Source of the DNA: Bradymonadia bacterium
GTDB taxonomy: Bacteria > Myxococcota_A > Bradymonadia > UBA7976 > UBA1532
Direction of reading: 5' to 3'
Length of the DNA stretch: 27,077 bases
Assembly (NCBI GenBank): GCA_049602795.1
Contig: JBMYRY010000001.1
Span: forward strand, 1-27,077
The notes beneath the pieces were generated by a model. It was not told the origin of the DNA. It was given only the letters and a program-made list of their open reading frames with translations, and did not search any database. Of this stretch, positions 1 through 24,992 are shown in pieces; within the stretch, counting starts at the first letter, position 1; every line of letters begins with the position of its first letter. The position numbers were made by a program, and so were the translations under genes.

Positions 1-252
1 GCGCTTCTACCAAGCTTAACGAGCTTTGGCATGGCCCTGGGATTCATTGTGAGCGGCGCGCTACTTACGGAAGTGGTGTTCTCGTATCCCGGGCAAGGCT
101 ACTTGCTCGTGAAGGCAGTGCTGGCTCAAGATTTCCCGCTCATGCAAGGTCTCTTTTTGGTCATTACGCTTTCCGTCTTGATCGCCAATCTTCTCGTGGA
201 TGTCCTCTACTGGTTTTTGGACCCAAGAACCCGGGAGGGCGCTACACAATGA
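1..252 (+). CDS. ABC transporter permease, DppB/OppB family (5'-truncated by the window edge)
   Basis: Frame is open from base 1 (ALLPSLTSFGMALGFIVSGALLTEVVFSYPGQG...QDFPLMQG...ANLLVDVLYWFLDPR). This matches the typical DppB C-terminus (E-x-VF-x-x-PG-x-G, D-x-P, LDPR). The stop overlaps the next ATG (ATGA). Confidence 0.93.
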   Translation, partial: ALLPSLTSFGMALGFIVSGALLTEVVFSYPGQGYLLVKAVLAQDFPLMQGLFLVITLSVLIANLLVDVLYWFLDPRTREGATQ

Positions 253-1142
253 GAGGATTTTGGGCCAACAAAAAAGCGCGCGTTGGATGCATCCTGGTTG
301 GCATGCTATGCCTGCTCACGGGCGCAGCGCATGTACTGATGGCATCGGATGCCGCATCATCGCAACACCATCCATCTCTGGTACCCCCAAGCTTGAACTA
401 TTGGTTTGGAACCACGATTCAAGGTCAGGATGTATTCGCCCAATTTATTCTGGGCGCAGCACCGACCATCTACTTCGCTGTAGTGATTGGCATCGGGGTC
501 ACAATCCTAAGTATTCTGATCGGCGTAACCGCCGGATTTGTAGGTGGTTGGGTCGACCACTTTCTGAGCCTGGTGATCAATATCTTTCTCCTCATTCCTG
601 GGTTGCCTCTGATGATTGTGCTGGCGGCTCTACTCCCAACTGGACCAGGCAGTATTGCTCTCGTCCTCATCGTGACGGGATGGCCATGGGGGGCACGCGT
701 CCTCCGTAGCCAAGCACTCACCCTGAGTCAACGTCCATTTATGGAAGCAGCAAGGCTATCTGGCGATGGGCGTCTGAGTCTAATCTTCATCCATCTTGTC
801 CCAAATATGGCCTCGCTCATCGGGACTTCATTCATTGGGGCAACAACATACGCAGTCGGTGCCCAGGTAGGTCTTGAGTTTCTCGGCTTTGGTGACCCGG
901 CTGCGGTCACTTGGGGCACGAATCTTTACTGGGCTACAAATGACCAATCACTGCTGACTGGCGCTTGGTGGACATTTTTGCCCACGGGACTCGGTATCGC
1001 CTTGTTTTCATTTGGACTTGTTCTGATGACCTTTGCACTTGATGAAATCACCAATCCCCTGTTGAGCACCCGAAGAGTCTTCAGGCGAGTCACCGGGAAT
1101 CGTCCCGATTTAGACACTGTGATTACGGAGGAAATGCCATGA
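249..1142 (+). CDS. ABC transporter permease, DppC/OppC family
   Basis: Motifs FGTTIQGQDVF, GxxAGFxGGxVD and the EAA loop (FMEAARLSG). Multiple hydrophobic segments. ATGA overlaps on both sides. Confidence 0.93.
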   Translation: MRGFWANKKARVGCILVGMLCLLTGAAHVLMASDAASSQHHPSLVPPSLNYWFGTTIQGQDVFAQFILGAAPTIYFAVVIGIGVTILSILIGVTAGFVGGWVDHFLSLVINIFLLIPGLPLMIVLAALLPTGPGSIALVLIVTGWPWGARVLRSQALTLSQRPFMEAARLSGDGRLSLIFIHLVPNMASLIGTSFIGATTYAVGAQVGLEFLGFGDPAAVTWGTNLYWATNDQSLLTGAWWTFLPTGLGIALFSFGLVLMTFALDEITNPLLSTRRVFRRVTGNRPDLDTVITEEMP

Positions 1143-2769: not shown

Positions 2770-2780
2770 GGGTGAGAGAA

Positions 2781-4151
2781 ATGAAATATAAATTCCCAAA
2801 TGATTTTGTATGGGGCGTAGCAACCTCATCATTCCAAATTGAAGGTGCAACCCAAATCGACGGTAGAGGACCATCCATTTGGGACACCATGTGCGACGAA
2901 GCCGGACGCATCGCCGATGGCACCAATGGTCATATTGCCTGTGACCATTATCATCGATACGAGGAAGACGCTGACATCATGGCTAATTTAGGCATTCCAT
3001 CGTATCGCTTCTCGGTTGCTTGGCCACGCATCTTGCCAAATGGGGTTGGGCAGGTAAATGAGTCGGGGCTTGACTTTTACGACCGGCTCGTGGACGCACT
3101 CCTCAAACGAGGCATAGAGCCGTGTATGACGCTTTATCACTGGGACTTACCTCAAGCGCTTGAGGACCGTGGCGGTTGGACCGAGCGAATGATCGTGGAT
3201 GCTTTCGTGAACTATACCGATGTGGTGACGCGACGACTGGGCGACCGACTCGGTTCAATCATCACGCATAACGAACCGTGGTGCATTAGCGTTCTTGGAT
3301 ACGTCAATGGTGAACATGCTCCCGGCATCAAGCAAGACTGGAATAAAGCGCTTCGCTGTGCCCATCATTTGAACGTATCGCATGGAATGGCCATGCCCGT
3401 GATTAGACAGAATGCACCTAATGCACTGGCTGGAATCACCATCAACCTCTGCCCGAACGAACCTGCAAGTGACAGTGACGCAGACCGTGAAGCGACCCGA
3501 AAATTCGATGGTTTCTTTAATCGCTGGTACCTAGATCCCATCTTTAGAGGCACGTACCCACAAGATCGAATCGAAGACCTCGTTGCCGACGGGACCTTGA
3601 ACGAACCATCGTTAGATTTTGTTAAACCGGGAGATATGGACATCTGCAAGACACCTGTCGACTTCCTAGGGATTAATTATTACTCCCGCGCAGTCATTCG
3701 ATCAGATGCGGTCAAAGACGAAGAAAATGACCCCGTATTGCGCGTTCAAGACGGACCTCGAACAGATATGAACTGGGAAGTCCACCCGGAAAGCCTCGAG
3801 AGGCTTTTGGTTCGTTTGAAAGACGAGTACGCCCCTGAACGCATTATCATCACCGAAAATGGTGCAGCCTACCCCACCGGGGTTTCCGACGACGGCAAAG
3901 TACATGACCAAGAGCGCATCGACTATTTCCGTGGTCATCTCGTAAGTTGCGCCAAAGCCATTGAACAGGGTGTCCCACTCACCGGCTACTATGCATGGTC
4001 GTTAATGGACAACTTCGAATGGGCTTTTGGATACGAAAAGCGATTTGGTTTGGTGCACGTTGACTACGACACGCTTGTACGAACCCCGAAGGAAAGTGCG
4101 AAGTATTACGCGAGTGTCATCGCGCAGAATGAGGTCTCTGATGAAGAATAG
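2781..4151 (+). CDS. Glycoside hydrolase family 1 beta-glucosidase (no signal peptide, likely cytoplasmic)
   Basis: FPxDFVWGVATSSFQIEG N-terminal signature, YRFSVAWPRI, TLYHWDLPQ, acid/base THNEPW, nucleophile ITENG, and WSLMDNFEW...KRFGL. ATG at 2781 is preferred; in-frame GTG at 2772 is the alternative start. Confidence 0.96.
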   Translation: MKYKFPNDFVWGVATSSFQIEGATQIDGRGPSIWDTMCDEAGRIADGTNGHIACDHYHRYEEDADIMANLGIPSYRFSVAWPRILPNGVGQVNESGLDFYDRLVDALLKRGIEPCMTLYHWDLPQALEDRGGWTERMIVDAFVNYTDVVTRRLGDRLGSIITHNEPWCISVLGYVNGEHAPGIKQDWNKALRCAHHLNVSHGMAMPVIRQNAPNALAGITINLCPNEPASDSDADREATRKFDGFFNRWYLDPIFRGTYPQDRIEDLVADGTLNEPSLDFVKPGDMDICKTPVDFLGINYYSRAVIRSDAVKDEENDPVLRVQDGPRTDMNWEVHPESLERLLVRLKDEYAPERIIITENGAAYPTGVSDDGKVHDQERIDYFRGHLVSCAKAIEQGVPLTGYYAWSLMDNFEWAFGYEKRFGLVHVDYDTLVRTPKESAKYYASVIAQNEVSDEE

Positions 4152-7100
4152 GTTCGCGTTATTGGTGCTGTTTTTAGGCGCAATCGCCGCACAGAGCACG
4201 CCTGCGGTGGAGTTAAAACGCCTCCAACCCAATGATGCCAACCAGGCTCGTCTGCACGTCAAGCCCGTGACGGTGGTCGCAAACGAGAACGGTGCTCATT
4301 TAGAAGTAGATGGTACACCGTTTCTAGTTCGGGGCATGAACTGGGGCTATATGCCCATCGGGCAGAACTATAGTTATGACCTCTGGTCTAAAGATGAAGC
4401 GTTCATTACTACCGTTTTGCATCGCGAAATGGGTCAGCTAAAGGCGCTGGGCGTCAATGCCATCAGACTCTTTAGTGATGTCCCTCCCAAATGGGTGGAA
4501 TGGATGTACGACAAGTATGGCATTCGAGTGGCACTCAACCATTTGATGGGTCGTTACGGCTTCAATGTTCAAGGCGTTTGGGTCAGCAATATTGATTACG
4601 CGAACCCAACGCACCGCAAAGCGATTCTGGAAGACCTGGAAAAAAACATCAAACGCTACACCGGCACGCGCGGCGTCCTGATGTGGCTATTGGGCAACGA
4701 AAACAACTACGGATTGCACTGGACTTCCTTCGAAATCGAGCCCCTTCCCGGAGAGGAAGATAAGGTCCGTGCAAAACCGTTGTATACCCTAATGGAAGAA
4801 GCTGCGTCGCTGATCAAACGTCACGACACACTGCATCCCATCTCATTAACGAATGGCGACCTTCAATACCTAGACATCATCGTCAAGACCTGCCCGAGCG
4901 TAGATATCTTTGGCAGTAATGTGTACCGAGGCAAAAGTGCCCGCGACTTCTACAGCCGCATCTGGAAAAGCTTCAAGAAGCCAGCCATGTTTACAGAATT
5001 TGGCTCCGACGCATTTAACGCAAAAACCGGCAAGGAAGACGCATTGATGCAGGCTAAAATGCTGGAGCGCCAATGGCATGACATCTATGCAAACACCGAG
5101 CCCATTGGAGGGAGCCGAAATGCCATCGGCGGCTTCGTGTTTCAGTGGTCCGACGGCTGGTGGAAGTACAAACAAGAGGAAAACCTGGATGTACATGACA
5201 CCAATGCAAGCTGGCCGAATGGGGGCTATCCGGACTTTGTGGAAGGCTTCAACAATATGAATGAGGAGTGGTTTGGCATCAACGCGAAAAGCCGCCCTGA
5301 TGCTGATGGACACTACCAACTCTATCCAAGAACCGCGTATTTCACCCTGCAACACATCTGGCGCCTGGACCCGTATGCAGAGGGTACAACCATCGCGTCC
5401 GTGGACGAGCACTTCAATCAAGTCAACTTCGCCCAGTTCGATGCGACGTACACGACGATCTTGAACCAAAACCGGGTTGAAAAAATTGAAAAACTCAAAC
5501 TCAACACATTTCTCCTAAAACTATCGTCTAACTTCTCAACTCGGAATCCTGCCGCAGGAGGGAATGACCAACTCACCTTTGACCATACGGAGTCGTTCAC
5601 GGTGGGGTTTGAAGCCCGACCCACGGCAAGGTCTCGAGCAGACCTCAGCATCAATGTGGTGGGCAACGTCGCTCAGAACCGATTAAACCCAATTTTCTAC
5701 GAAAACCGTGGTGAAGAATTCACCGTGATTGATGTTGACGGCGAGCGCCAGCAAATGACCACCCTTGACCGACTCCGGGTGTATCAAAGTAGTTTTGAAA
5801 TCGAAGAGAAACAATTCGATCTCGAGGGCTATTATCGAACCGGTCACTACCACTGGGGTGATGAAGGTGACTTTTTCGGGCTTTACCGATTCGCTTTCTA
5901 CGGTGAAAACCTCGACATTTACGATGGGAATGCACCTTTCGGCGCCGTGTTTACTGGAAAGAAAAAAATGAAAGGGCTCAAGGTAGCGTTCGGTCCGGAG
6001 TTATACTGGGGCGCCAACCCAGCGGTGATCGCCAAGTATCGCAAGGCGCTATGGGGCACCACCTTAACTCTCATGCATCAGGAAGACCTGGCAAGCCGTG
6101 CAGATGTCACAACCAGCTCGGTGATCCCCGAACCACGGTCTCGAAAAACGACGGTCACAACCGAATGGGGCATTGGTAGTCTCAAACTACAAATTGGCGG
6201 TATCCTAGCCGGTACCCGTCGTTTAGGACGCACGTACTACGAAACTGAAAAGAGCGATGGACCGGGCTACCAGAATAGCGGCATTGATGTGTACTCGAAT
6301 ACCATTCAATGGGCTGACACCTGGGGTGTACGTGGACGACTCGATGGTGCGATCGGTCGAAGTTTGATCCACCTTCAAGCGTCATACATGGGCTTGGTCG
6401 CTGACGGCGGTCCCGATGCACGTGAAACCAACTTCACCCTTCGAGAGAGTGGGCGAGGCAACCACTATGCATTTGAAGCAGCAAGCTATTTTGCGCTTGG
6501 TCACTTCAGCTTCGGACCCAAGGGCATTTACCAAGTCCCACTCGTAGGTCCGATCGACCCAGTGGAAGGCGGAATCGACGCAGCCAATGGCATCTTTTAT
6601 CCGGCAGTTACACTCAGAAATGTCTTAGACGACCCATTTATTGTTAGAGAGAATCGGGAAACCATCGCCGGTCAATTCACCTTTGTTTACGATCCAACAC
6701 CAGCTACTTGGTTCTGGATGTGGGACCGAATTGACCGCGAAACAAGCCCGTTTGCAATGGCAATACGAAGTACGTATTGGCACCGGCCGACAGCACAGGA
6801 TGCGCGCGTCGCCATCTTTGCCAACGGTGTTCAAGGTCCATTCGGGAACAGTGTGCCCGCTCGAGACAGTTGGCGGACTGAGTTAGATTGGGTTGCAAAC
6901 TACAAAGGATTCCGTTTTTACGGTAATGGATTCATCGGTAAAGAGGACGCCTGGGGTGAAGCAACTCGACAAGTGTTTCACTTTGGGACGATGGCCGGGA
7001 TGAATCACCGCGGTACCTCGGCTCTCTTGGATGTTAGATTTAATGATTGGGGTCCGTACGACTATCACCGTGACTTTAACCTCACCTATCCATTTCAATT

Positions 7101-7278
7101 GCGCGGTGAACTTGCTTGGGGTCTCAAACCGAGCCGAGTCGGTCAAAATCGAACTCGCTTCGGGGTAAGAGGTATTTATCGTCAGTTGGACGTGTACTCA
7201 GAGGGCTACTCGGATCCGCTGTCCGAATCGCTAGGCATTGAATCTGAAATTCAAACCTTCATGGAGTTTGCGCTATGA
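4141..7278 (+). CDS. Secreted clan GH-A-like (GH2 TIM-barrel-like) glycoside hydrolase fused to a predicted C-terminal outer-membrane beta-barrel, 1045 aa
   Basis: Start re-called at ATG 4141, which gives the signal peptide MKNRFALLVLFLGAIAAQSTPA and an 11-nt overlap with the GH1 stop. The N-terminal half has VDGTPFLVRGMN, LGVNAIRLF, acid/base-like LLGNE (4693-4701) and nucleophile-like FTEFG (4993-5004). The C-terminal ~590 aa contains many short amphipathic, aromatic-rich strands. The barrel is inferred, not proven. Confidence 0.8.
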   Translation: MKNRFALLVLFLGAIAAQSTPAVELKRLQPNDANQARLHVKPVTVVANENGAHLEVDGTPFLVRGMNWGYMPIGQNYSYDLWSKDEAFITTVLHREMGQLKALGVNAIRLFSDVPPKWVEWMYDKYGIRVALNHLMGRYGFNVQGVWVSNIDYANPTHRKAILEDLEKNIKRYTGTRGVLMWLLGNENNYGLHWTSFEIEPLPGEEDKVRAKPLYTLMEEAASLIKRHDTLHPISLTNGDLQYLDIIVKTCPSVDIFGSNVYRGKSARDFYSRIWKSFKKPAMFTEFGSDAFNAKTGKEDALMQAKMLERQWHDIYANTEPIGGSRNAIGGFVFQWSDGWWKYKQEENLDVHDTNASWPNGGYPDFVEGFNNMNEEWFGINAKSRPDADGHYQLYPRTAYFTLQHIWRLDPYAEGTTIASVDEHFNQVNFAQFDATYTTILNQNRVEKIEKLKLNTFLLKLSSNFSTRNPAAGGNDQLTFDHTESFTVGFEARPTARSRADLSINVVGNVAQNRLNPIFYENRGEEFTVIDVDGERQQMTTLDRLRVYQSSFEIEEKQFDLEGYYRTGHYHWGDEGDFFGLYRFAFYGENLDIYDGNAPFGAVFTGKKKMKGLKVAFGPELYWGANPAVIAKYRKALWGTTLTLMHQEDLASRADVTTSSVIPEPRSRKTTVTTEWGIGSLKLQIGGILAGTRRLGRTYYETEKSDGPGYQNSGIDVYSNTIQWADTWGVRGRLDGAIGRSLIHLQASYMGLVADGGPDARETNFTLRESGRGNHYAFEAASYFALGHFSFGPKGIYQVPLVGPIDPVEGGIDAANGIFYPAVTLRNVLDDPFIVRENRETIAGQFTFVYDPTPATWFWMWDRIDRETSPFAMAIRSTYWHRPTAQDARVAIFANGVQGPFGNSVPARDSWRTELDWVANYKGFRFYGNGFIGKEDAWGEATRQVFHFGTMAGMNHRGTSALLDVRFNDWGPYDYHRDFNLTYPFQLRGELAWGLKPSRVGQNRTRFGVRGIYRQLDVYSEGYSDPLSESLGIESEIQTFMEFAL

Positions 7279-7757
7279 GAAGTTATCTTACCCTCGTGTT
7301 GTTGTGTGTCATCAGTTGTGGGGATCCTTCGGAGCCTCTCCTTGGTACTCCCATTGATCGTAGTCCTTTTGACCCGATAGACCAAACCGCAGGGATCCAT
7401 CCGAGCACGTCGGTGTTGACCGATCCAGCAAACCTTTATCGTAATCGACCACCAACTGAAGATGCGAAGTGGGATGTGCAATCACTAGGGGATCCGAAAT
7501 TGGCATTCTACGCGTTCGCCAGCGCCCTAACCCGAGTACCAACGGGGGAAAACCAATATTATGTAGGGATCAATCTTAAGCGTATGTCCGATCTCAATCT
7601 CGTGGCACCAGGTAAGGAGACCATGGTCCGAAACATGGCCATCAGAGCTTTTGAAACAGTCATTGAACAATTCCCCAACGATTTGACGTACGAGGCTGAC
7701 GGAGAAACGAGCTATAACGTAGCCGACTTCGCTCGAGACCAACTAACAAAGTTCTAG
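7275..7757 (+). CDS. Uncharacterised lipoprotein, last gene of the glycan operon
   Basis: Signal peptide II with lipobox (MRSYLTLVLLCVIS-C) and an ATGA overlap with the upstream gene. No recognised family. Confidence 0.8.
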   Translation: MRSYLTLVLLCVISCGDPSEPLLGTPIDRSPFDPIDQTAGIHPSTSVLTDPANLYRNRPPTEDAKWDVQSLGDPKLAFYAFASALTRVPTGENQYYVGINLKRMSDLNLVAPGKETMVRNMAIRAFETVIEQFPNDLTYEADGETSYNVADFARDQLTKF

Positions 7758-8064: not shown

Positions 8065-9372
8065 ATGATGACGAACTACACCGCGCGACAACAAGCTCAA
8101 GAGGCTCGAAGTGCGAGTCGCGCACTCAACCAGCTTTCATCAAATGAGCGTGCACAACTCCTAAATGATGTCGCCAATGCACTCCTCACTCAACAGGCGC
8201 GAATTATATCTGCCAACCAAGAGGACCTTGCCGATGCTCAACAAGCGGTCAATGAAGGGCGTCTCGCGACCGAGTTATACAATAGGCTCAAGATTGACAG
8301 CGCTCGACTCGAATCGCTTGCTGAAGGCATTAGAAGTATTGCCAATATGCCAGAGCCCATTGGTCAAATTCTCGTTGATCGAGACCTTGGTGAAGGCCTG
8401 CATTTGCAACAAGTCTCAGCACCGCTCGGTGTTGTACTCGTCATTTTCGAAGCACGTCCAGACGCATTGCCACAAATTGCAGCGCTCGCGCTGCGAAGTG
8501 GAAATGGCTTGATTCTCAAAGGTGGTCGTGAAGCTCGACGATCCAATGCCGTGTTGCATGATGTAATCGGTGAAGCGATTGAGACCTTTGTACCGCGCAC
8601 CGTCATCGGTCTCGTCGAAACGAGAGAAGAAATTCATGACTTGCTCGCACTCGACGACGTGATTGATTTAGTCATCCCAAGAGGATCCAATGCGCTCGTC
8701 CAGATGATTCAATCAAACACCAAAATCCCCGTAATGGGGCATGCCGACGGCGTATGCCACATCTACTTGGATGAAAGTGCTACTCTGGCTCAAGCAGTCG
8801 CGATCATTAACGACTCCAAATTAGATTACCCGGCGGCATGCAACGCGGTTGAGACGCTTCTTGTCCATCGAAAATGGCTCGAACAATATACGTTTGAGGC
8901 ACTGCAAGACGGATGCGCCGCCATCCTATTCCGAACAGCAGGTATTGACCCAACGCTTGCACAACTACCTCAAGCACCCGCTCTACATCATGAATACGGA
9001 GATGCTCAGCTCACGATCCACATTGTAGATACCTTGGATGACGCAATCGACCACATTCATCAATACGGGTCCGGACACACGGAATCCATTATTACGAATG
9101 ACACTGAGAAGGCTGATACATTTCTGAAGCGCGTGGATAGCGCCTCGGTCTTTTGTAATGCCAGTACTCGATTCGCCGACGGCTATCGATACGGACTTGG
9201 AGCCGAAGTTGGCATCAGCACCTCCCGTCTCCATGCACGGGGACCGGTTGGCGTAGACGGTCTCCTCACCACACGTTGGCTGATGCGCGGTAACGGACAT
9301 ACGGTAGGCGCCATCAAACGAGGTGAATGGGTCTTTGACTGGCGAGAACGACACATCGAAAGGCGAGACTGA
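8065..9372 (+). CDS. proA: Gamma-glutamyl phosphate reductase (glutamate-5-semialdehyde dehydrogenase)
   Basis: Motifs [44 protein letters not shown], catalytic [17 protein letters not shown] and NASTRFADG...GAEVGIST...HARGPVG. SD-like AAGGA at 8050-8054. Confidence 0.96.
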   Translation: [435 protein letters not shown]

Positions 9373-9374
9373 CG

Positions 9375-12300
9375 ATGGCATCGGAACGTACATTGATTGA
9401 AGGATGGTCGCGTCAAGAGCAAGGCATCCTGAAAGAAATTGAGACTCATCTTGCCACTGTTGAAGAAATGGTCCTAAGCCCTACCCAGCTGAACCAGGCA
9501 ACGTCTATGATCGCTGGGCTATGTTTAGCATTATCAAAACACTTGGAAACGAAAGCTGAGAAGAAACAGAGCGACCAATTATCGCAGCTGATGAATGACG
9601 ACCTCGGACAATTATTTTCAACACTACTCACCGACCGTGTGCCACGCCTAGCCGATGGCGCCGATGTCACACGTCAAGCAAGAAACGTCCTATCGAAAAC
9701 CGGTGTCCCAGCTTCCATGCCACTGTTGGACCAATGTCAGTTGATGGGTCTGAAGATGTTTGGAACGGTAGCGCCAAAGCTCATTGGAAATGCCGTGCGA
9801 AAGCGAATCCGGAAGGAGGCACAGACCTTTCTCATGCCCGGAGAGCAGCAAGCATTGTCTGCCGGCGTTAAATCACTCAAAGCCTCCGGTGTGCAGGTCA
9901 ATGTGAATCAACTTGGTGAGGAGGTATTAGGCGATATCGAAGCACGAAAGCATATGGATGCTTATCTAGAACTTCTCAATACGGAAAGCATCGATACCAT
10001 TTCGGTCAAAAGTTCCTCCATCTGTGCCCAACTCTCAGTGCTGGCATTCGACACCTCGCTCCATCGCATTTGCGATGCACTTCGGGAATTGTATCGCGCA
10101 GCCCGCGGCGAAAATGGTCAGTCGGATAAACTTGTCATGCTTGATATGGAAGCTTATCGAGACCTCGAAATGACTTTCACTGCGTTTAAAACAGTTCTTG
10201 ATGAACCGGAGTTTCTATCATTAAAGGCAGGGATTGTCTTACAGGCATATTTGCCAGACTCACATGATGTACATCAAGGTCTGATTGAATGGGCTAAGGC
10301 ACGTCGAGCACGAGGCGGTTCGGCAATTCAACTCCGTCTCGTCAAAGGAGCGAATCTCGCCGTAGAGAAAATTGAATCGGACATTGCCGGCTGGTCTATC
10401 CCCATTTTCCCAAGCAAAACCGATGTGGACGCCAGCTTTAAATTGATGGTGGAACGAGCGCTCACCAGTGAACATCTATCAAATGTAAAGGTCGGTATTG
10501 CGAGTCATAATTTATTCGACGTGGCGTATGCGCTGTGCTTAACGAAGCAACGTCATCTCACCGAAGGAGTGCACTTTGAGGTTCTCTCGGGCATGGCTGG
10601 GGGACTGTCTCGGGTGTTGCTCGGACTCGGTTGTCGCGTATTGGTCTATAGTCCAGCGGTCACCGATGCAAACTTGCACGCAGCAGTGGCATACCTTGTT
10701 AGACGACTCGATGAAAATACAGCCGACCAAAACTTCCTGAGGCATAGCTTCAATATGAGCGTGGGTGATGACGCGTGGCTGAGCCAGGAGCGAGGATTTG
10801 TGGAGAGTCGAAAGCGGAGCCTCACTCTATCGCTCAAACGCAGACGTCGCAGCCGATTGGAGCCCGCCCGCGAAACTGCCGAAGGCTTTAGCAATGCTCC
10901 GGATACCGACTTTACGTTGCGTGAAAATCGGACATGGCTCGCGGAGAAAATCACCACTCAACACCAGGCATCCATCCGGACCATTCGTTCGTCCCATTAC
11001 GACGCAAGCGAGTCCCATGTTACTCGTGACGGATATGACCCATCTGCACCGAATAGCACACCGTATACGATAGAACTCGCAACGTGCGCCGAGTTGGAAC
11101 AGATGCTCACAACCGCCGCAGCATCGACATCATCATGGTCAACCACGAGCCCCGAAAAACGTGTCTCGCTCCTTCGAACGCTAGCCGACCACATCGAATT
11201 ACGTCGTGGCGAGATCATTGCAGCGCTCATGCTGGATGGGGGTAAAGCGGTCATTGATGCAGATGCTGAAGTCAGTGAGGCTATCGATTTTTGCCGGTAT
11301 TACGCCCATCGATATAACCGTCTCATGGCGGATGAGCAACATGCGTACACAGCACGCGGAGTGACCGTGGTCACGCCGCCCTGGAATTTCCCATTTGCGA
11401 TTCCTTTGGGGGGCGTTGCAGCTGCATTGGTGACCGGAAACCCGGTGATTCTTAAGCCAGCCATCGAAACCCCCTATATCGCTCACGTTTTGTTTGAGTT
11501 GTGCCAAAAGGCGGGCATCCCCGGAGGGATTCTTCAATTCGTCGTGACCGACGACGAGACCGCTACCCCTCTAATCACCGACTCAAGAGTAAAAACGGTG
11601 GTTCTAACTGGCGGAACATCGACTGCCCACCTGTTCAAACGGATTCGACCGGACCTTCACCTCCTGGCTGAAACGGGGGGTAAAAATGCCACGATTGTGA
11701 GTCACTTTGCTGATCAAGATCTCGCGATTAACGCCATCATACAAAGTGCGTTTGGTCACGCCGGTCAAAAATGTTCAGCAACCAGCCTGCTGATCATCAC
11801 GGATGCGCTGGCACAGGACTCGAGCTTCCGATCACACCTAATCGATGCCGCGAAGAGCATGAGTGTAGGTCCTGCTTGGTCTCTCGACGCTCGAGTGACA
11901 CCGCTCATCAATCCGCCACAAGGTGACCTCTTGAAGGCCCTAACGACGCTAGATGAGGGGGAATCTTGGTGGCTCGAACCCAAGGTGAGCCCGGAGAACC
12001 CTCGCCTCTGGAGCCCTGGTATCAAGGGCCCGGTGCAACCTGGTTCGTTCAGCCATCTTACTGAGTTTTTTGGCCCCGTACTCAGTGTGATGGTCGCGAA
12101 AGACCTCTCGCAGGCGATTGAATGGGCGAATGCAACCCCCTATGGTCTTACGGCAGGCTTTCATTCACTCGACGAAAGTGAACAACGACAATTCCTTGAA
12201 ACCATGAACGCCGGTAACCTATACGTCAATCGCACTACAACCGGTGCGATCGTTCAACGACAGCCCTTCGGCGGACGTAAAGCATCGTGCTTTGGACCCG

Positions 12301-12971
12301 GTGCAAAGGCGGGCGGACCAAACTACTTGAAAATGTTCGTGCACCAAAACCCGATCGGGGCTGCCTCCCTCGCCAATGGTCAGGTACACCCAATCCTACA
12401 CCGCCTTGTAGAGTCATGGCGTGCGCTCAGTTTCGAGCTCACCGCCGCAGCGCGCTTGTTTTCAGACGAGATTACCCAGTTGAACAGGCGATACGACCCT
12501 TGCCAGATCTCGGGTCAAGACAACCTGTTCCGTTATCAGTTTTCACTGCGAGTCCTCGTGCTCGCCTTTGAGGGATTCGATCCAATAGACCTCGCACGCG
12601 TGCACCTAGCCCTTGCCATATGCGGAAATCCATACCAAATTATCATCGCAGGTCAACCAAGCTATTCAAATGCGGTTCAACTTCGCCACGTGCTATCAAA
12701 TGATCTACTCGACACACCGTGGGACGCCGCGATCGACGCCAAGCAACACGACCACATTCGCATTCTAGGAACTCCACCAGAGACACTCTACAACCGTTCA
12801 ACCTCTGCGCGCTGCATCGACAACACACCAGTCTGTCATGGGATAGAGGAACTCAGAAAGTACACAGTAGAACAAAGCATCTCACTTGACTATCACCGCT
12901 ATGGGCATCTCGGTCTGCGCGAAAAGTCTTTAGAGTCGGTCGTCGGTACGGTTACGCCATTCGCTCCATAG
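9375..12971 (+). CDS. putA: Bifunctional proline dehydrogenase / L-glutamate gamma-semialdehyde dehydrogenase (PutA); no N-terminal DNA-binding domain recognised
   Basis: PRODH motifs LDMEAYRDL, GIVLQAYLPDS, RLVKGANL, ASHNLFD and YLVRRLDEN. ALDH motifs PWNFP, ETGGKN, catalytic GQKCSA, EFFGP, YGLTAG and QPFGG. Confidence 0.95.
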   Translation: MASERTLIEGWSRQEQGILKEIETHLATVEEMVLSPTQLNQATSMIAGLCLALSKHLETKAEKKQSDQLSQLMNDDLGQLFSTLLTDRVPRLADGADVTRQARNVLSKTGVPASMPLLDQCQLMGLKMFGTVAPKLIGNAVRKRIRKEAQTFLMPGEQQALSAGVKSLKASGVQVNVNQLGEEVLGDIEARKHMDAYLELLNTESIDTISVKSSSICAQLSVLAFDTSLHRICDALRELYRAARGENGQSDKLVMLDMEAYRDLEMTFTAFKTVLDEPEFLSLKAGIVLQAYLPDSHDVHQGLIEWAKARRARGGSAIQLRLVKGANLAVEKIESDIAGWSIPIFPSKTDVDASFKLMVERALTSEHLSNVKVGIASHNLFDVAYALCLTKQRHLTEGVHFEVLSGMAGGLSRVLLGLGCRVLVYSPAVTDANLHAAVAYLVRRLDENTADQNFLRHSFNMSVGDDAWLSQERGFVESRKRSLTLSLKRRRRSRLEPARETAEGFSNAPDTDFTLRENRTWLAEKITTQHQASIRTIRSSHYDASESHVTRDGYDPSAPNSTPYTIELATCAELEQMLTTAAASTSSWSTTSPEKRVSLLRTLADHIELRRGEIIAALMLDGGKAVIDADAEVSEAIDFCRYYAHRYNRLMADEQHAYTARGVTVVTPPWNFPFAIPLGGVAAALVTGNPVILKPAIETPYIAHVLFELCQKAGIPGGILQFVVTDDETATPLITDSRVKTVVLTGGTSTAHLFKRIRPDLHLLAETGGKNATIVSHFADQDLAINAIIQSAFGHAGQKCSATSLLIITDALAQDSSFRSHLIDAAKSMSVGPAWSLDARVTPLINPPQGDLLKALTTLDEGESWWLEPKVSPENPRLWSPGIKGPVQPGSFSHLTEFFGPVLSVMVAKDLSQAIEWANATPYGLTAGFHSLDESEQRQFLETMNAGNLYVNRTTTGAIVQRQPFGGRKASCFGPGAKAGGPNYLKMFVHQNPIGAASLANGQVHPILHRLVESWRALSFELTAAARLFSDEITQLNRRYDPCQISGQDNLFRYQFSLRVLVLAFEGFDPIDLARVHLALAICGNPYQIIIAGQPSYSNAVQLRHVLSNDLLDTPWDAAIDAKQHDHIRILGTPPETLYNRSTSARCIDNTPVCHGIEELRKYTVEQSISLDYHRYGHLGLREKSLESVVGTVTPFAP

Positions 12972-13135: not shown

Positions 13136-15655
13136 TTGAGGACGAAAAATATACAACTCTTTCTCTTGTCGTTTGCACTTAGTTTTAGCGCATGTAGTGA
13201 ACTACCTGATGTTCAAGGAGACCGGCAGTTTGGGGGCGAAGATGGATCAATTACTCCCCAGCAATTCGATGGAAGCACGGGGGATCAAGGCATCATGCCG
13301 ACCCAGGATGCTCAGGTCATTCACGAATGGAACACGCGCACCGTTTTCGAAGCGCTAGAGCCTATGTGCGGTGTTTGTCACGGAGAAGGACAAAGTAGTC
13401 CTTACTTTGCTAGTCTCTCGAATTTTGTCGATACCATCGTCGCGGATGAGAACTACATCGTACTCGGCGAGCCCGATAGTAGCGAACTCCTTACCTTGCT
13501 AGACGGAAGTTTCGACGGTCCCCTGTCACAAATGCCACCGTCAGGTGACACGTATTTCTCACGCATCGAGGGCGATTTAACGAAGCCAGACCTTGAAGAC
13601 TTGCGCGGTTGGATTGAAAGACTGACGTCGCTGCCGACCATTGACGATCAACGTACATGCGCAACGATACATGCACCGAAATTGCTCCACCGATTGAATC
13701 GACTTGAATATAATCGTTCTGTTCAAACACTGCTCGAAACAACTCAACTACCGGCAAACGACTTTCCGTCTGAAGACCAGAGCTTTGGTTTTGACAATAT
13801 CGCCCAGGCGCTGGCCGTAAGTCCGCTTCTTGTGGAGAAATATGACCTCGCCGCGCAGGCACTCGCTGAAGAGGCCCTACCTACCCCAAGTGCCCGACGA
13901 CAAACTTACTTCTTCGAAGCTGAGAGTGAAATGACCGCCTCAACAGGTGGTCCTTCCGGCGAAGGATGGAATCTATGGTCTAACGGCAGTCTGACAGCGA
14001 ACGTCAATCTGCCTGCACCAGGACGCTACCAAATCGTGGCATTTGCACGGCAACAGCAGGCCGGTCCTGATCCTGCACAAGCACGATTTACAATTGATGG
14101 ACAAGGCGTTTACACATTCAATGTGAGCGACACTGAGCGGCAAGAATATCGGTTTGAAAACATTAATATTGAGGCAGGTTTTCACATCATCGGCATCGAA
14201 TTCCTCAACGACTATTACTGCCCCCAAATGCGATTTGACAACGGTCAATGCGGCAACGGCAACCCTGCACTCATAGGAGACCGAAATCTCATCGTCGATT
14301 GGGTGTCGCTCGAAGGACCACTCGACGGACAACCTGTTCAAAGCCGTTTTGCAGACACCTTCCTACAGAACTGCGACCTCACCACGGGTCCGAATGCCCA
14401 CACGTGTGCTCGAGATGCTGTCGATCGATTTGCACGCTTCGCTTGGCGCCGCCCGATCACCCAGAACGAATCTGATAGATTATGGACACTTGCGAGCGCC
14501 GAATTTGACCAAGAAAACGGTCTTACAAATGGTCTGCGACAAGCACTTCATGCCATTCTCTTGTCACCCCATTTTCTGTTTAGAGTGGAACAAGCCGGGG
14601 CACCGGGTAGCCCGTTAAATGGATACGAAAGAGCAACTCGCCTCTCGATGTTCTTATGGCGCACCACACCATCAGAGGCATTGCTCGACCAAGCTGCGGA
14701 CGGCATCCTCGACACGCCTGAGGGCGTCGCCGAGGTCGCGTCAGCAATGTTCGACGACGCGATTCCCATGATGGATGACCTTGCCAACCAATGGCTACTT
14801 TTGCATCAAGCCCGCCTGGTGGATCCAGATTATGCGCTCTTCCCTGATTTTGATGAAGCACTCCGCGATAGCATGGTGACCGAAACCACCCTTCTATTCC
14901 GCACACTCTTTGTTGAGAACCGACCTCTCCTGGATTTAGTGAATGCTGACTTCACCTTTATCGATGAGCGACTTGCAGCACATTATGACCTGCCAGCGCC
15001 AACCAGCCGCTCATTTGAACGGATAGACCTACCCGCTGGCAACCGGAAAGGCGTGTTAACCCATGCGTCATGGCTGTCGGCAACGTCCCAACGCACCCGA
15101 ACCTCGCCAGTCAAACGCGGAAAATGGGTGTTAGAGGAATTATTATGTGCTGCACCACCACCGCCACCACCGAGCGTAGAAGGGCTACCGGAGGATGTAG
15201 ACCAGAATGCCTCGCTGAGAGAAAGATTGGAACAGCACCGAGCTGACCCTGAATGTGCGACGTGCCATACCCACATGGACGCTGCAGGGTTTGGTCTGGA
15301 ACAATTCGATGCGATTGGCGAATTTAGGACGCACGATGGAGATGACCTAATCGAGCCCACCGGGGCATTGAATGATGGGACACCATTCTCAAGCGCAATC
15401 GAAATGGCTGATGCAATTCGTCGTCACCCCGATCTCGGACCATGTCTCACCAATAAAATCCTGATCTATGCCCTCGGTAGGGGGCTAGAGGACAATGAGT
15501 TCTGTTTCGTTGACGATATTAGCAACCAAGCTGCCCGTGATAACTATGAGACCCGCTCTCTGATTAACGCAATTGTTCAAAGCCCTCTGTTTTTGAATCG
15601 CGGCGAAAACCAATCAGAAGCCAGTCAAATGAGCGACGAGGAGAATGACCAATGA
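13136..15655 (+). CDS. DUF1592-family (DUF1587/1595/1592/1588/1585) lipoprotein with an N-terminal cytochrome c-like domain and an inserted CBM-like beta-sandwich
   Basis: TTG start after AGGGGG. Lipobox LSFSA-C. CGVCH at 13367-13381 followed by GEPDSSEL...QMPP. Family motifs RLNRLEYNRSV, FARFAWRRP, LLSPHFLFR, RLSMFLW, RTSPVKRGKWVLEELLC, CATCH (15254-15268) and YALGR. The insert ends in EFLNDY...GDRNLIVD. Confidence 0.88.
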   Translation: MRTKNIQLFLLSFALSFSACSELPDVQGDRQFGGEDGSITPQQFDGSTGDQGIMPTQDAQVIHEWNTRTVFEALEPMCGVCHGEGQSSPYFASLSNFVDTIVADENYIVLGEPDSSELLTLLDGSFDGPLSQMPPSGDTYFSRIEGDLTKPDLEDLRGWIERLTSLPTIDDQRTCATIHAPKLLHRLNRLEYNRSVQTLLETTQLPANDFPSEDQSFGFDNIAQALAVSPLLVEKYDLAAQALAEEALPTPSARRQTYFFEAESEMTASTGGPSGEGWNLWSNGSLTANVNLPAPGRYQIVAFARQQQAGPDPAQARFTIDGQGVYTFNVSDTERQEYRFENINIEAGFHIIGIEFLNDYYCPQMRFDNGQCGNGNPALIGDRNLIVDWVSLEGPLDGQPVQSRFADTFLQNCDLTTGPNAHTCARDAVDRFARFAWRRPITQNESDRLWTLASAEFDQENGLTNGLRQALHAILLSPHFLFRVEQAGAPGSPLNGYERATRLSMFLWRTTPSEALLDQAADGILDTPEGVAEVASAMFDDAIPMMDDLANQWLLLHQARLVDPDYALFPDFDEALRDSMVTETTLLFRTLFVENRPLLDLVNADFTFIDERLAAHYDLPAPTSRSFERIDLPAGNRKGVLTHASWLSATSQRTRTSPVKRGKWVLEELLCAAPPPPPPSVEGLPEDVDQNASLRERLEQHRADPECATCHTHMDAAGFGLEQFDAIGEFRTHDGDDLIEPTGALNDGTPFSSAIEMADAIRRHPDLGPCLTNKILIYALGRGLEDNEFCFVDDISNQAARDNYETRSLINAIVQSPLFLNRGENQSEASQMSDEENDQ

Positions 15656-17049
15656 GCAAGAATAACTCACGCGGCCCCTTGATTCGCGGTTTTGACACTG
15701 GTTTATCTCGACGAACCTTTCTTTGGGGTGCGGGTGCAACCCTGGCACTACCATGGCTTGAGGCGATACGCGCTCCGGGCTTCATCAAGGGTGCTCGGGC
15801 ACAAACGCCTATGCTCACAAAACGCTTTCTCGGTTTCTATACGCCCTGCGGCTTCAATATGAATGAGTTTTGGCCCAACAGTGTCGGTGCACTGAGCAAT
15901 GCGACACTCACGGGTACATCTCTTGAAGGTTTAATCCCTCATCTCAATGAGATTCTGGTGATTCGTGGACTAGACAATCACGCCGGTTCAGCGCAAGGGG
16001 ACGGTCCAGGTGACCATGCACGAGGCACAGCCACATTTCTTACTTGTGTGCACCCTTACAAGCATGCTTCCGACGTACGTATTGGTCCATCAATAGACCA
16101 ACATATTGCACGCTTCTACGAAGCCGAAACTCGATTCGCGTCCGTGGAAATTGGATGTGAAGGCGGTGGTAATGAAAATGCCTGCGACTCGGGATACAGT
16201 TGCGCATACAGTCGAAACATTGCGTGGCGTGATGCTCAAACACCGCTGCCCAAGGAAACCAGTCCGCGACTCCTCTTTCAGCGTTTATTTGGTACCGTTG
16301 ATCCAAATGCAACGCCTGAAGCCATCGCGAACCGAAGGCGACAGCGGCGAAGTGTTCTAGACTTTGTTTTGGCAGATGCAAACCAACTCAGTCAATCGAT
16401 GGGACATGCTGACAGAGTTCGACTCGAATCTTATATGGATGGCATTCGCACGATCGAACAACGCATTGAATCGAGTGAGCAGGATACATCTCAGTGCGGC
16501 AGCGACCTTACGCCGCCAACATCAGCGCCCGCGGACCGAGCGGCCTATGCTGCATTGATGCTCGATATTCTCGTAGAGGCAATGCGATGCGACCTGACCC
16601 GCGTCGGCACATTTATGCTCGGCAATGGTGGCAGTAATCGCTCCCATACTGAAATCGGAATTTCACAAGGGCATCATGAGTTGTCACACCATCAAAATGA
16701 CGCGACGACTCTTAACCGGATCGCCCAAATTGATCGATGGGAAGTGGGTATGCTCGCAGCGCTATTGGATCGAATGAAATCGGTTGATATGGGTGGTCAC
16801 AGTCTTTTAGATGAAACCACCCTCTACTTTTCTAGCGAAATTGAAGATGGCAACGCACATCGGCATTACAACTTGCCTATCGTCGTCGCTGGACGCTCAG
16901 GTGGACTCACAAATGGCCGATTTGTAGATGTGAGTGGTGCGCAACAAAACAACGCCCCCGTCGCTGATCTCTTCCTGAGGTTTGCTCATGATGTCGGCGT
17001 CACACTGCCCGCATTCGGAGACGACGGCACAGCACCGCTTAACGTGTAA
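15652..17049 (+). CDS. DUF1552 (HXXSHH family) Tat-exported protein
   Basis: Twin-arginine signal LSRRTFLWGAGATLALPWLE, motifs SIDQHIA, CDLTRVGT, HELSHH (16675-16692), LLDETTLYFSSE and HRHYNLP...G. ATGA overlap with the DUF1592 gene, which is the usual partner. Confidence 0.92.
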   Translation: MSKNNSRGPLIRGFDTGLSRRTFLWGAGATLALPWLEAIRAPGFIKGARAQTPMLTKRFLGFYTPCGFNMNEFWPNSVGALSNATLTGTSLEGLIPHLNEILVIRGLDNHAGSAQGDGPGDHARGTATFLTCVHPYKHASDVRIGPSIDQHIARFYEAETRFASVEIGCEGGGNENACDSGYSCAYSRNIAWRDAQTPLPKETSPRLLFQRLFGTVDPNATPEAIANRRRQRRSVLDFVLADANQLSQSMGHADRVRLESYMDGIRTIEQRIESSEQDTSQCGSDLTPPTSAPADRAAYAALMLDILVEAMRCDLTRVGTFMLGNGGSNRSHTEIGISQGHHELSHHQNDATTLNRIAQIDRWEVGMLAALLDRMKSVDMGGHSLLDETTLYFSSEIEDGNAHRHYNLPIVVAGRSGGLTNGRFVDVSGAQQNNAPVADLFLRFAHDVGVTLPAFGDDGTAPLNV

Positions 17050-18619: not shown

Positions 18620-21600
18620 CTATTGAAGTTGAACATTCTTATAGATTGTCGCCTCACCCGGCAGGGCTGAATTTCCGCAGGATGCGACGCCTGGGTCTCC
18701 TCCACGGCCGTTAACGCCAATCGTATCCACATTTGTGCCCGTTCGAATGACCGATGCACTTGACGCCCCCCAAAAGCCGACGGAAGCACCGCCACGACCT
18801 GGCGCACCGCAGCCGCCTCGACCGCCGTTGCCACCACGCCCGCCATCGCCACCACAGACGCCATTACGACAGCTGCCAGCAAAACCGTTACCACCATTAC
18901 CGCCAGCACCACCATTACCGCCGTTACCTCCGCGACCGCCGCGTCCAATAATTAACGTGGAGTTATTCACACGTACGGTACTGTCATTGATGGCCACCCC
19001 CACACTCGGGGCCCCTGTTGAGCCGCCGAGACCGCCCGTGCCATAGCCACCGCCACCACCACCACGACCGCCATCGCCAGCACGATGAGAATCGAAGGCT
19101 GCATCACACCCGCCGCCACCACCGCCGCCGCCACCACCGCCGCCGGCGCGACCATTAGTGCCGTTCAAAGGCGGACCCGATGACCAGACTAAGGACTGAT
19201 TAAACGTTCCTGAACTTAGGGAGCCAGAGGGACTTGGACCCGATGCACCAATGATCCCAGAGAAACCATTACTACCTCGCCCGCCTTCACCGGAATCGCA
19301 CCACCAAAAGTTGTCGACGCTAATGCCACCAGCGCCGCCATTACCACCAGAACCTCCGCCACTTGCCCCATTTGCCCCGCGTGCCCCCGAAGAGCCATTC
19401 CCGACCTGACCTGCACCACCAACGCCGCCTCCGCCACCGCCCGGTGACCCACCACTACCGCCTGCGAACCCAGAAGCGCCAGGATTACCGGCAATGCCAC
19501 CTGACCCTCGGCCACCAGAGTTAACGGACAAGATGATACCGTTTAGGGACAAATGATCGTCCGAATTGCGGACCTTGATGCCAATATTGGGGTCATTTAG
19601 ACCGCGAGTACCAGTTGCTGCGATTCTCACATCATCAAATCGAGTCTCACGGGTTAGGTTTTCGACCACGAACACCGTCGCTGCCGTCGTATTTAGATGT
19701 GTGTTGAAACTGCTTGCCACTCGAGATTGATAGCTGTCAGTAAACCCACCAAAGATCTTGGCCCCATTAGGCACAGTGAGAGTACTACCCGTTGCATAGA
19801 CACCTTGCTCAATATAGATGTGATCCCTACCCAGATTTTGATCCATGGCAAAGAACGCCTGAGAGAGCGTAGGCAGTGGTTGGTCTGGTGTTAATCCACT
19901 ATTGCTGGCAATACCCGACAAACTGACAAAGACGGCTCGGTCAAGGGTACCAATGATGCCATCGCAATTCGTATCCAGTAAATCACCGGGCAAATCGTCA
20001 GCATTATAGCCAGCGATCTGAGTGTAGTCAGGTTCTTGGAATGACCCTTCTCCACAAATTTTAACCGCGCCTGAGCACACGCCCAATTGATTGTCTGCTA
20101 GACCTCCGGTGAGCGGTTCTCCCGTGGGTCCCTCATCCACAACCCCGTCACAATCATTGTCTAGTCCGTCGCAAGAGACCTCTACGGTTTCATGATTGGG
20201 CGCATCGGCGTAATTCGGCTCAATCTGACCCAATACACCACCACAAACCTTGGTCATGCCCTGACAAACTCCTTGCTGGTTATCGGCGAGATTCAATTGA
20301 ATGCCATCGTCAATCTCACCATCACAGTCGTTGTCTAACCCGTCACAGGTTGCTTCATTCGGTCCCGCCTCGTAGGTCTCAATCAAGGTATAATCAGGCT
20401 CACCAAATCCAGTCGGTCCATTACACACTTTGACTTGCCCTTCACAAACCCCAACGTTGAGGTCGGCAGGTGGTGCAACGAGGTTTTCATCCACCGCGTC
20501 ATCACAGTCATTATTGAGCCCATCACATAGGGTTTCCTCGTCAGCCTGATAGGCTGCAATGGCTGTATAATCTGGTTCTACCTGACCGTTGACACCATCA
20601 CATACCTTTAATGCCCCTAAACATACACCTCGCTGATTATCGGCGAGTTCAAAAGCAATCGATTCATCAGCAGCGCCATCGCAATCATTATCAGCACCAT
20701 CACAAACCGTTTCGGTCACTTGATAGTTGGGTATGGTTTCGTAGCTTGGCTCAATTAAGCCATTGATGCCCGCACACACTTTCACCGAGCCCAAACAAAC
20801 GCCCGCCTGTACATCCGCTAGCTGCGCCGTGAATGTCTCATCCACTTCACCATCACAATCGTTGTCTAATCCATCGCAACTCATTTCAGCGGAGTCCTCG
20901 AACAGCGGCACAGTATTCACATAATCGGGTTCAACAAAACCAGCAGCGCCCGCGCACACTCGACGGGCACCAAAACAGACACCGCGCTGTTTGTCAGAAA
21001 GCGGCAAGACCACATTTTCATCGGTCCGGTCATCGCAGTCATTGTCCACACCATCACACGTTGACTCATTGATTTCGTACGTTGCAATCTGAGTGTAGTC
21101 AGGCTCGCCAAACCCTTGAAATCCGTTACACACCTGACGACTGCCGAGACACACACCAACCTGCTTGCTCGCCAAAGGCGCAGTGATGCCTTCATCAATA
21201 TTCAAATCGCAGTCATTATTGAGACCATCACAGGTCACTTCTTCCGACTCGTAGGTTTGAATCAGCGCATAATCGGGTTCCACCTGACCCATCACGCCTG
21301 CACACACCTTTTGCGCGCCTTCACAGACCCCACGCTGAAGATCCGCAAGATTCAACGGTACATTCTCATCGGTTTCGCCATCACAATCGTTGTCTAAACC
21401 ATCGCAAATCGTCTCAATCCGGCGCTCGAAACCGACAATTTCTTCATAAGTCGGCTCTACAAAACCTTGTTCTCCCTCGCAGATACGCACGGCACCTGTG
21501 CACACACCTTCGGTCAATGATGCGGCGGGGGGCTCGATCATCTCATCAATCTGACCGTCACAATCGTTGTCTAAGCCATCGCAGGTGAGCTCTGCGTCAA

Positions 21601-24872: not shown

Positions 24873-24992
24873 GGCTAAGGACTCCTTAAAACACCAGTTC
24901 ATCGGTGATACATTACTCACTCTGACGTGAAAGCTGGCTTTAATCAAGAAAGTCAGAGGGGCCGAACAACTCAAGCCGTGCCCAACAGGATG

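Follow-up and report, generated by a model that had tools for sequence, protein, structure and literature searches.

A candidate glucanase–outer-membrane barrel fusion for β-1,3-glucan uptake in a Bradymonadia operon

Glycan uptake across the outer membrane is at present understood in terms of TonB-dependent transporters, of SusC/SusD type or other, and of a handful of small sugar porins. The locus described here raises the question of whether a single polypeptide could both pass a polysaccharide chain and cut it. It lies in a window of 27,077 nucleotides (nt), the whole stretch of DNA that was analysed, taken from the forward strand of a Bradymonadia bacterium (GCA_049602795.1, contig JBMYRY010000001.1, positions 1–27,077). 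The gene in question (4141–7278, +) encodes a protein of 1045 amino acids (aa), P0001, in which a preliminary description had recognized a glycoside hydrolase (GH) apparently fused to a large outer-membrane β-barrel and had proposed a channel carrying its own glucanase. The two-part architecture, a clan GH-A glucanase followed by an outer-membrane barrel, is supported by structure models, fold matches and end-to-end conservation, and the protein is a strong candidate for a so far undescribed device for the uptake of sugar chains. We consider it fairly probable that it forms a two-module, TonB-independent outer-membrane passage for β-1,3-gluco-oligosaccharides with a tethered endo-glucanase.

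The fusion protein and its two predicted parts

The gene and its parts are listed below with their positions in the window.

4141–7278 (+): glucanase–barrel fusion gene, open frame of 1045 aa
4141–4200 (+): Sec (SPI-type) signal peptide, residues 1 to ~20, read from the sequence; no lipobox
4258–5421 (+): clan GH-A (β/α)8 catalytic domain, residues ~40–427, from Pfam, PDB sequence matches and structure matches
4699–4701 (+): Glu187 in GNE (residues 185–187), predicted acid/base
4996–4998 (+): Glu286 in TEFG (residues 285–288), predicted nucleophile
5428–5484 (+): linker helix, residues 430–448, just before barrel strand 1, from DSSP on both structure models
5494–7275 (+): predicted outer-membrane β-barrel, ~26 strands, residues 452–1045, from AlphaFold2, fold matches and amphipathic strands
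5836–5937 (+): long loop between strands 5 and 6, residues 566–599, including HYHWGDEGDFFG, from column conservation

Despite an alternative in-frame TTG at 4027, the ATG at 4141 is the sensible start of the gene, since it has a GAGG 9 nt upstream and a signal peptide immediately downstream. The 5′ end of the gene overlaps the stop codon of the preceding GH1 gene by 11 nt, and its 3′ end overlaps the next ATG by 4 nt (ATGA, 7275–7278). The Sec signal peptide reported in the preliminary description is present in the 1045-aa translation of 4141–7278 (+), where it reads MKNRFALLVLFLGAIAAQS, and was modelled by AlphaFold2 as a low-confidence helix at the N-terminus of the full-length protein.

Residues ~36–430 were modelled as a (β/α)8 barrel in the full-length AlphaFold2 structure (predicted local distance difference test, pLDDT, 83.8), and more than 50 GH-A structures match this region with VIA-align Z scores of 20–27. 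Of the GH2-like, GH157 and GH158 families named beforehand as candidates, GH157 and GH158 proved to contain the structures nearest to this domain, with LaGH157 (9fz9, Z 26.6), GH158(Pro) (9oro, Z 26.5) and BuGH158 (6pal, Z 24.4) at the top of the ranking, followed by many GH2 and GH5 enzymes. Searches of PDB sequences with the single sequence retrieved 9oro at E 5e-8, ahead of a GH2 β-galactosidase, and a profile of 49 sequences retrieved 9oro at E 3.2e-8, 6pal at E 1.6e-6 and a GH2 enzyme at E 1.1e-6; LaGH157 was not recovered by sequence or profile at E ≤ 0.001 in these PDB searches, though it is the top structural match. The only Pfam match on the domain is a weak one to Glyco_hydro_2_C (residues 90–299, E 2.4e-6, 27 bits). 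In GH2 a sugar-binding and an Ig-like domain stand before the TIM barrel; here Glyco_hydro_2_N and Glyco_hydro_2 are both missing and the TIM barrel begins ~20 residues past the signal peptide, so that membership of GH2 was rejected.

In clan GH-A the acid/base Glu, in an NE motif, comes after strand 4 of the catalytic barrel and the nucleophile Glu after strand 7. The acid/base of GH158(Pro) is Glu143 and its nucleophile Glu229 (PMC13195107). In the HMMER alignment Glu187 falls on residue 135 of the 9oro chain and Glu286 on residue 221, and as the deposited chain is offset by 8 residues these are the published pair. The GNE and TEFG motifs were thus located with both Glu intact, as had been reported, and both residues are invariant in the 49-sequence alignment (A1). 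Because of this invariance and of the alignment with the GH158(Pro) pair, the domain is, as judged from its sequence, a catalytically intact clan GH-A enzyme. Its identity to the GH158 structures is 21–23% and to LaGH157 18%, so that it is best described as GH158/GH157-like and is not clearly a member of either family.

The known GH158 and GH157 enzymes (6pal, 9oro, 9fz9) share with this domain the GH-A fold (Z 24–27), the NE acid/base and the TEFG-like nucleophile, aligned with those of GH158(Pro), and their genes likewise occur in β-1,3-glucan utilisation loci. They differ in what follows the catalytic barrel. The known ones, whether soluble proteins or lipoproteins, have at their C-terminus an immunoglobulin (Ig)-like domain, which in GH158 is eight-stranded (PMC13195107), and the GH157 of Bacteroides cellulosilyticus is an ordinary lipoprotein within a SusCD locus (PMC10229575), whereas the fusion has a helix and the ~26-strand barrel in this place. 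The Ig-like domain of GH158 was not found in residues 350–450, to which DSSP assigns three short strands and helices leading into the membrane barrel. Among the homologues, P0106 and P0087 (1351–1378 aa) have ~330 extra N-terminal residues. A more distant GH-A-like domain, 32% identical to residues 218–381, is encoded on another contig of the same genome (C53:4934–5398 (−), L004), a marine assembly that is 71% complete; it sits in an open frame of 738 aa.

The C-terminal 594 residues were also modelled separately with AlphaFold2 on an alignment of 46 sequences from Myxococcota, Bacteroidota, Gemmatimonadota and candidate phyla, which gave a pLDDT of 87.2 and a predicted template-modelling score (pTM) of 0.83. 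By DSSP, both the full-length and the barrel-only model feature 26 antiparallel strands of 7–17 residues each, joined strictly as hairpins. All eight of the two-residue turns are found at even-to-odd strand junctions, and hence on one face of the structure, with connections of up to 41 residues on the other face, as in classical outer-membrane proteins. On 24 of the 26 strands one face is clearly the more hydrophobic in the 46-sequence alignment and the other polar, with a mean Kyte-Doolittle difference of 2.3 between them. The strand-like segments quoted in the preliminary description are each present in the translation, and each maps to a strand predicted by AlphaFold2, with FDLEGYY on strand 5, LKVAFGPE on strand 7, WGVRGRLDGAI on strand 14, HYAFEAASYFAL on strand 16, FQLRGELAWG on strand 24, RFGVRGIYRQL on strand 25 and the C-terminal IQTFMEFAL on strand 26.

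Fold matches for the barrel-only model were drawn from an exhaustive VIA-align scan of 48,161 PDB chains, of which the best 50 matches were considered, together with 50 listed Foldseek matches. Every one of these is a transmembrane barrel of the outer membrane or of an organelle. Over the whole domain the best are the 24-strand ushers FimD (Z 14.9) and PapC (Z 13.5), the 26-strand MtrB (394 residues aligned) and 22-strand TonB-dependent transporters; the matches also include porins, sugar porins, AlgE, PelB and a polysaccharide secretin. Searches with the whole protein add similar transmembrane barrels for residues ~450–1045, and the matched ranges stop short of the linker helix. Language-model neighbours of the barrel include the porin and Treponema MOSP families. 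Neither Pfam nor NCBIfam has a model that covers the barrel region, whether the whole protein or residues 440–1045 are searched; Plug, TonB_dep_Rec, CarboxypepD_reg and SusD gave no Pfam match, Plug and TonB_dep_Rec giving none on the barrel even at E 10. The barrel is not a TonB-dependent transporter, an autotransporter barrel or a known sugar porin, and its nearest structures are the ushers and MtrB. From the models we infer that the C-terminal 594 residues form a predicted outer-membrane barrel of ~26 strands that would be inserted in the membrane.

The long loops of the barrel have a mean conservation of 0.62, compared with 0.55 for the strands, and hold 64 of the 112 positions that are conserved at ≥90%, a pattern suggestive of a lumen or a docking surface that has a function. 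The loops spanning residues 566–599, 621–627, 751–774 and 971–981 stand out and are rich in Trp, Tyr, His, Asp and Gly. With a mean conservation of 0.82 and 17 positions kept at ≥90% across phyla, loop 566–599 is a candidate for a lumen constriction or a sugar-binding loop. Such conservation is unusual for surface loops and, as far as the alignments go, fits an inward-folded, specific constriction or a docking site for the enzyme. The linker helix, with a mean column conservation of 0.39, is the least conserved part.

Distribution and gene neighbourhoods

Full-length matches were found in more than 4000 database proteins, aligned end to end at 40–71% identity, and the fusion is carried by at least 592 species (one genome per species scanned), so that the two-part architecture is not a product of chance. 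Database labels of these homologues go no further than 'GH2 TIM barrel domain-containing protein'. The 80 best carrier loci of the species scan were fetched and include Myxococcota, Bacteroidota, Gemmatimonadota, Latescibacterota, Krumholzibacteriota, Eisenbacteria and Balneolales, the Bacteroidota carriers among them being Bacteroides cellulolyticus, Flavobacterium, Chryseobacterium and Sediminicola. All of the fetched records that name a phylum are from diderm phyla.

In the window the fusion gene lies in an operon that is cut by the contig end, with the following neighbours.

3–1142 (+): ATP-binding cassette (ABC) permease (BPD_transp_1, Pfam), cut by the contig end
1139–2769 (+): two Opp/Dpp-type ABC ATPases (oligo_HPY C-terminal region), same operon
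2772–4151 (+): cytoplasmic GH1 β-glucosidase without signal peptide (Pfam E 9e-168), same operon
7275–7757 (+): 160-aa lipoprotein, lipobox VIS|C, helical, tetratricopeptide repeat (TPR)-like, translationally coupled to the fusion

The two closest syntenic loci (L001 and L002) show the gene order in full, with ROK, GH16, SBP_bac_5, two permeases, two ATPases, GH1, the fusion and the small lipoprotein, an arrangement characteristic of Myxococcota-type loci. Throughout the loci sampled, the fusion is set among genes for β-1,3-glucan use. Among neighbour proteins of the 19 non-Bacteroidota loci there are ten of GH1, nine ABC ATPases, and four each of GH3 and GH16. The 13 Bacteroidota-type loci all contain GH16, and in addition Y_Y_Y/LuxR regulators (8), GH17 (7), GH30 (4) and GH3 (3). 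TonB_dep_Rec, Plug and SusD are absent among the families seen more than once in these 13 loci, and the fusion therefore stands where a laminarin locus normally has SusC/SusD. It follows the regulator and precedes a surface-type lipoprotein, GH16, GH17 and GH30, and it resembles SusC/SusD further in that a gene for a large outer-membrane barrel is followed by a lipoprotein gene; it differs in having ~26 strands rather than 22, in showing no evident plug or TonB box, and in the covalent attachment of the enzyme.

The gene directly downstream of the fusion encodes a lipoprotein in every locus where its N-terminus was read. A small lipoprotein in this position was found by tblastn in 23 fetched loci, nine of which were aligned (A4). 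The Myxococcota-type protein is 160–205 aa long, helical and TPR-like, and its neighbours in the ESM Atlas are of TPR type, with weak TM scores of 0.5–0.58. It is probably a structural partner of the barrel. The downstream lipoproteins of Bacteroidota are larger (440–800 aa), some of them with Big_2, and have acidic residues directly after the lipid Cys. Homology between the small and the large lipoproteins was rejected (hhalign probability 1.6%). The GH16 enzymes of the Bacteroidota loci are themselves lipoproteins with acidic residues after the Cys. According to published work, such residues are a signal for lipoprotein export in Bacteroidota, and the match to this signal suggests, by analogy, that these GH16 lipoproteins are exposed on the surface.

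Two further features of the Bacteroidota-type loci were observed. Most of the 13 contain, between the GH16 gene and a GH17-like gene, a protein of ~1150 aa without a Pfam match (for example L061:14520–17981, L024:15094–18510 and L076:15021–18563), which may be the GH149 phosphorylase named in the laminarin-locus literature. In Bacteroides cellulolyticus (L029:6962–8668) the fusion is preceded by a DUF6377 protein, where Flavobacteriia have a Y_Y_Y/LuxR regulator, and this protein may represent a different class of regulator for the fusion module.

The barrel also occurs without the enzyme. A barrel-only profile run against 1.84 billion representatives gave 584 matches, among them stand-alone barrels of 564–624 aa with signal peptides of their own (P0179, P0192, P0195, P0208, P0209, P0214 and P0228) and without any Pfam match; two of the nine rows classed as stand-alone, P0159 and P0161, have no signal peptide and may be truncated gene calls. 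Six genomic contexts of stand-alone barrels were inspected. Two are operons of barrel, SBP_bac_5, permease, ATPases, LacI and GH16, in which the barrel gene lies ahead of or behind the shared genes; three of the other four are on contigs too short to tell, and P0214 is in an unrelated neighbourhood. Marine metagenome loci L085:56–1849 and L089:9001–10734 (also L090) encode stand-alone barrels of 577–597 aa with their own signal peptide, and the operons around them comprise SBP_bac_5, a LacI regulator, the genes of an Opp-type ABC transporter and either one or two copies of GH16. Since stand-alone forms share the type of ABC importer and the glucanase family with the operon of the window, the barrel is, on the evidence of gene content, an autonomous module of β-glucan uptake systems, to which the enzyme domain may or may not be covalently joined. 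Seven stand-alone forms make up one supported clade, beside a fused form, in a maximum-likelihood tree of the barrel domain, which is consistent with loss of the enzyme domain; the tree is unrooted and no order of events is claimed.

Proposed function and competing explanations

The proposal that the protein is a channel carrying its own glucanase is supported by the operon context in several phyla and by the stand-alone barrels in similar operons. After Sec export, the C-terminal 594 residues would be inserted in the outer membrane as a ~26-strand barrel, whose long, conserved, aromatic-rich loops would shape a specific passage for β-1,3-gluco-oligosaccharide chains without a TonB-driven plug. 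The GH157/GH158-like retaining endo-glucanase, tethered by one helix, would cut the chain where it enters or where it leaves the channel. The operon's own SBP_bac_5/Opp-type ABC system would then import the fragments, which the cytoplasmic GH1 enzyme would split to glucose. The source glucan is proposed to be laminarin or a fungal β-1,3-glucan. As no plug domain or TonB box is evident, transport would be passive.

The preliminary description had the polysaccharide cut and its oligomers passed inward. If the cut is made outside, this presumes an outward-facing enzyme, whereas standard barrel topology would place the N-terminal domain in the periplasm. A periplasmic glucanase, acting on the chain as it emerges, is slightly ahead of an outward-facing one, because an even strand number (26) makes a barrel begin and end in the periplasm, because N-terminal domains stay periplasmic in most large barrels that have them (LptD, BamA, the ushers and BcsC), and because the Bacteroidota loci already encode GH16 lipoproteins that are probably at the surface. 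Display to the outside is allowed by the order of passenger, helix and barrel and by an occasional carbohydrate-binding module (CBM). A more specific version of the proposal, which we put forward only tentatively, is that laminarin threads through the plug-less barrel and is cut by the glucanase at the periplasmic exit, hydrolysis rectifying diffusion in the manner of a Brownian ratchet, and that in many phyla this device stands in for SusC/SusD or TonB-dependent receptors. If so, the stand-alone barrels would be this channel paired with an enzyme on another polypeptide.

Several points weigh against the proposed uptake function. The sequence similarity to GH158 is weak (21–23% identity, E ~1e-8) and little better than that to GH2 β-galactosidases (E ~1e-6), so that the assignment of a substrate depends mainly on gene context; an endo-β-1,3-glucanase activity is inferred only from the nearest structures and, by analogy, from the GH16, GH17, GH30 and GH1 neighbours. 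The neighbourhood tallies cover the 25 commonest families, and a lone TonB receptor among the 188 neighbours could be missed; TonB-dependent receptors elsewhere in the carrier genomes could still carry out the import. The final residue is Leu in this protein and L, W, F, I, K or N in its relatives, and although the last strand is amphipathic such a variable residue is, in sequence terms, not a canonical aromatic β-signal. Closure of the barrel and placement of the GH domain and linker helix are predictions drawn from DSSP strings and fold matches alone. As to expression, two metatranscriptomes contain four short contigs that are ≥99% identical to the operon, one of them spanning the GH1/fusion junction; this evidence is weak and suggestive, as RNA libraries can contain DNA.

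Of the competing explanations, the one that survives best, unlikely as we hold it to be, is an autotransporter-like arrangement in which the barrel is no more than an anchor and a pore for secretion, its lumen is occupied by the linker helix, the glucanase is displayed on the cell surface, where it would attack polymeric glucan, and oligosaccharides enter the cell by way of other porins or receptors. Type Va autotransporter enzymes such as the esterase EstA have the same order of parts, with a signal peptide, an N-terminal enzyme, one linker helix (here of ~19 residues) and a C-terminal barrel. The translation of the fusion contains a single Cys, and some homologues (P0197) have an extra N-terminal CBM4_9 module of a kind typical of enzymes that meet polymeric substrate. 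In Bacteroides uniformis the GH16 and GH158 enzymes are reportedly both at the surface. The barrel itself, however, argues otherwise. The preliminary estimate that it is roughly double an autotransporter barrel in size holds, with ~26 strands over 594 residues against the 12 strands of the Autotransporter family, whose Pfam model gave no match on the fusion protein. Its loops are better conserved than its strands while the linker helix is the least conserved part, and the occurrence of passenger-free barrels with their own signal peptide in similar glucan/ABC operons indicates that the barrel has a function of its own. Surface display and the channel proposal would overlap in the case of an outward-facing enzyme on a barrel that is itself conducting.

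It is very improbable that the barrel is instead an exporter, secreting a self-made β-glucan that the fused hydrolase trims or clears in the periplasm. Synthase-dependent export typically combines an outer-membrane barrel with a periplasmic glycoside hydrolase (BcsC/BcsZ, PelB/PelA, PgaA/PgaB, AlgE/AlgL), and AlgE, PelB and the polysaccharide secretin do occur among the fold matches; the tallied families of the loci examined, however, include no glycosyltransferase, synthase, OPX or PCP family, the neighbours are genes of import and catabolism (solute-binding protein, ABC importer, GH1, GH16, GH17, GH30, GH3 and ROK/LacI), and no TPR periplasmic scaffold stands ahead of the barrel. That the region is a soluble β-rich accessory domain (a β-sandwich array, a β-helix or a carbohydrate-binding region) and the barrel an AlphaFold artefact is hardly credible, for although there is no Pfam outer-membrane family match, the C-terminal residue is non-aromatic and the structural evidence is all predicted, the models are confident, no soluble β domain, the preliminary description's soluble β-sandwich included, is found among the 50 best VIA-align or the 50 listed Foldseek matches, the strand lengths, hairpin order, one-sided turns and alternating hydrophobic faces are traits of membrane barrels, all fetched loci that name a phylum are from diderms, and the language-model neighbours include porin and Treponema MOSP.

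The channel proposal can be set beside several known systems. The FimD and PapC ushers (24 strands), MtrB and LptD (26 strands) are, like the fusion barrel, very large single-chain barrels, and FimD, PapC and MtrB are its best whole-domain matches; they show no sequence similarity to it (6–9% identity in structural alignments), their cargoes are pilus subunits, a cytochrome and lipopolysaccharide, and none has an enzyme domain. In LptD, too, a periplasmic domain precedes the barrel, and a lipoprotein, LptE, is its dedicated partner. LamB, ScrY, ChiP and CymA are TonB-independent oligosaccharide channels encoded with a matching ABC importer and hydrolases, and have conserved aromatic loop residues; unlike the fusion they have 14–18 strands, are mostly trimeric and carry no fused enzyme, and their homology to the fusion barrel is not detectable.

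Hydrolases joined to membrane proteins have conceptual precedents in two other glucan feeders. GluM of Corallococcus is an Oar-like protein of TonB-receptor type. It is an outer-membrane β-1,6-glucanase that has been described as belonging to an outer-membrane barrel family of its own (PMC10800785), and a fusion of GH17 with a major facilitator superfamily (MFS) protein in Formosa laminarin loci likewise joins a hydrolase to a transporter, in the inner membrane (PMC6246565). In agreement with the earlier statement that no characterised protein of such architecture was known, no paper on a fusion of a glycoside hydrolase with a large outer-membrane barrel was found.

If the proposal is true, a barrel family without a model in Pfam or NCBIfam would bring in a new route of glycan uptake, and would change the reading of 'polysaccharide utilisation loci (PULs) without SusCD' in metagenomes; it would also offer a compact enzyme–channel module for engineering. 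Laminarin ranks among the largest marine carbon pools with rapid turnover, and β-1,3-glucans are the main polymers of fungal walls. The breadth of the distribution and this ecological setting make the fusion of high interest.

Other genes in the window

Beyond the glucan operon, and separated from it by a gap of 300 nt, a gene for a ProA-like aldehyde dehydrogenase stops 2 nt before that of a 1198-aa PutA (proline dehydrogenase plus aldehyde dehydrogenase), the pair spanning 8065–12971. An 839-aa PSCyt3/PSD2-5 protein (DUF1585/1587/1588/1592/1595) with a CBM60-like insert, followed by a DUF1552 (HXXSHH) protein, is encoded at 13136–17049, a pair typical of Planctomycetota-style envelope proteins. 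On the reverse strand, 18620–23113 (−) encodes a protein of 1497 aa with five MopE-type putative metal-binding repeats, which is adjoined by genes for an M48 peptidase, two tandem YbjQ-like proteins (24036–24974) and a DUF2652 protein.

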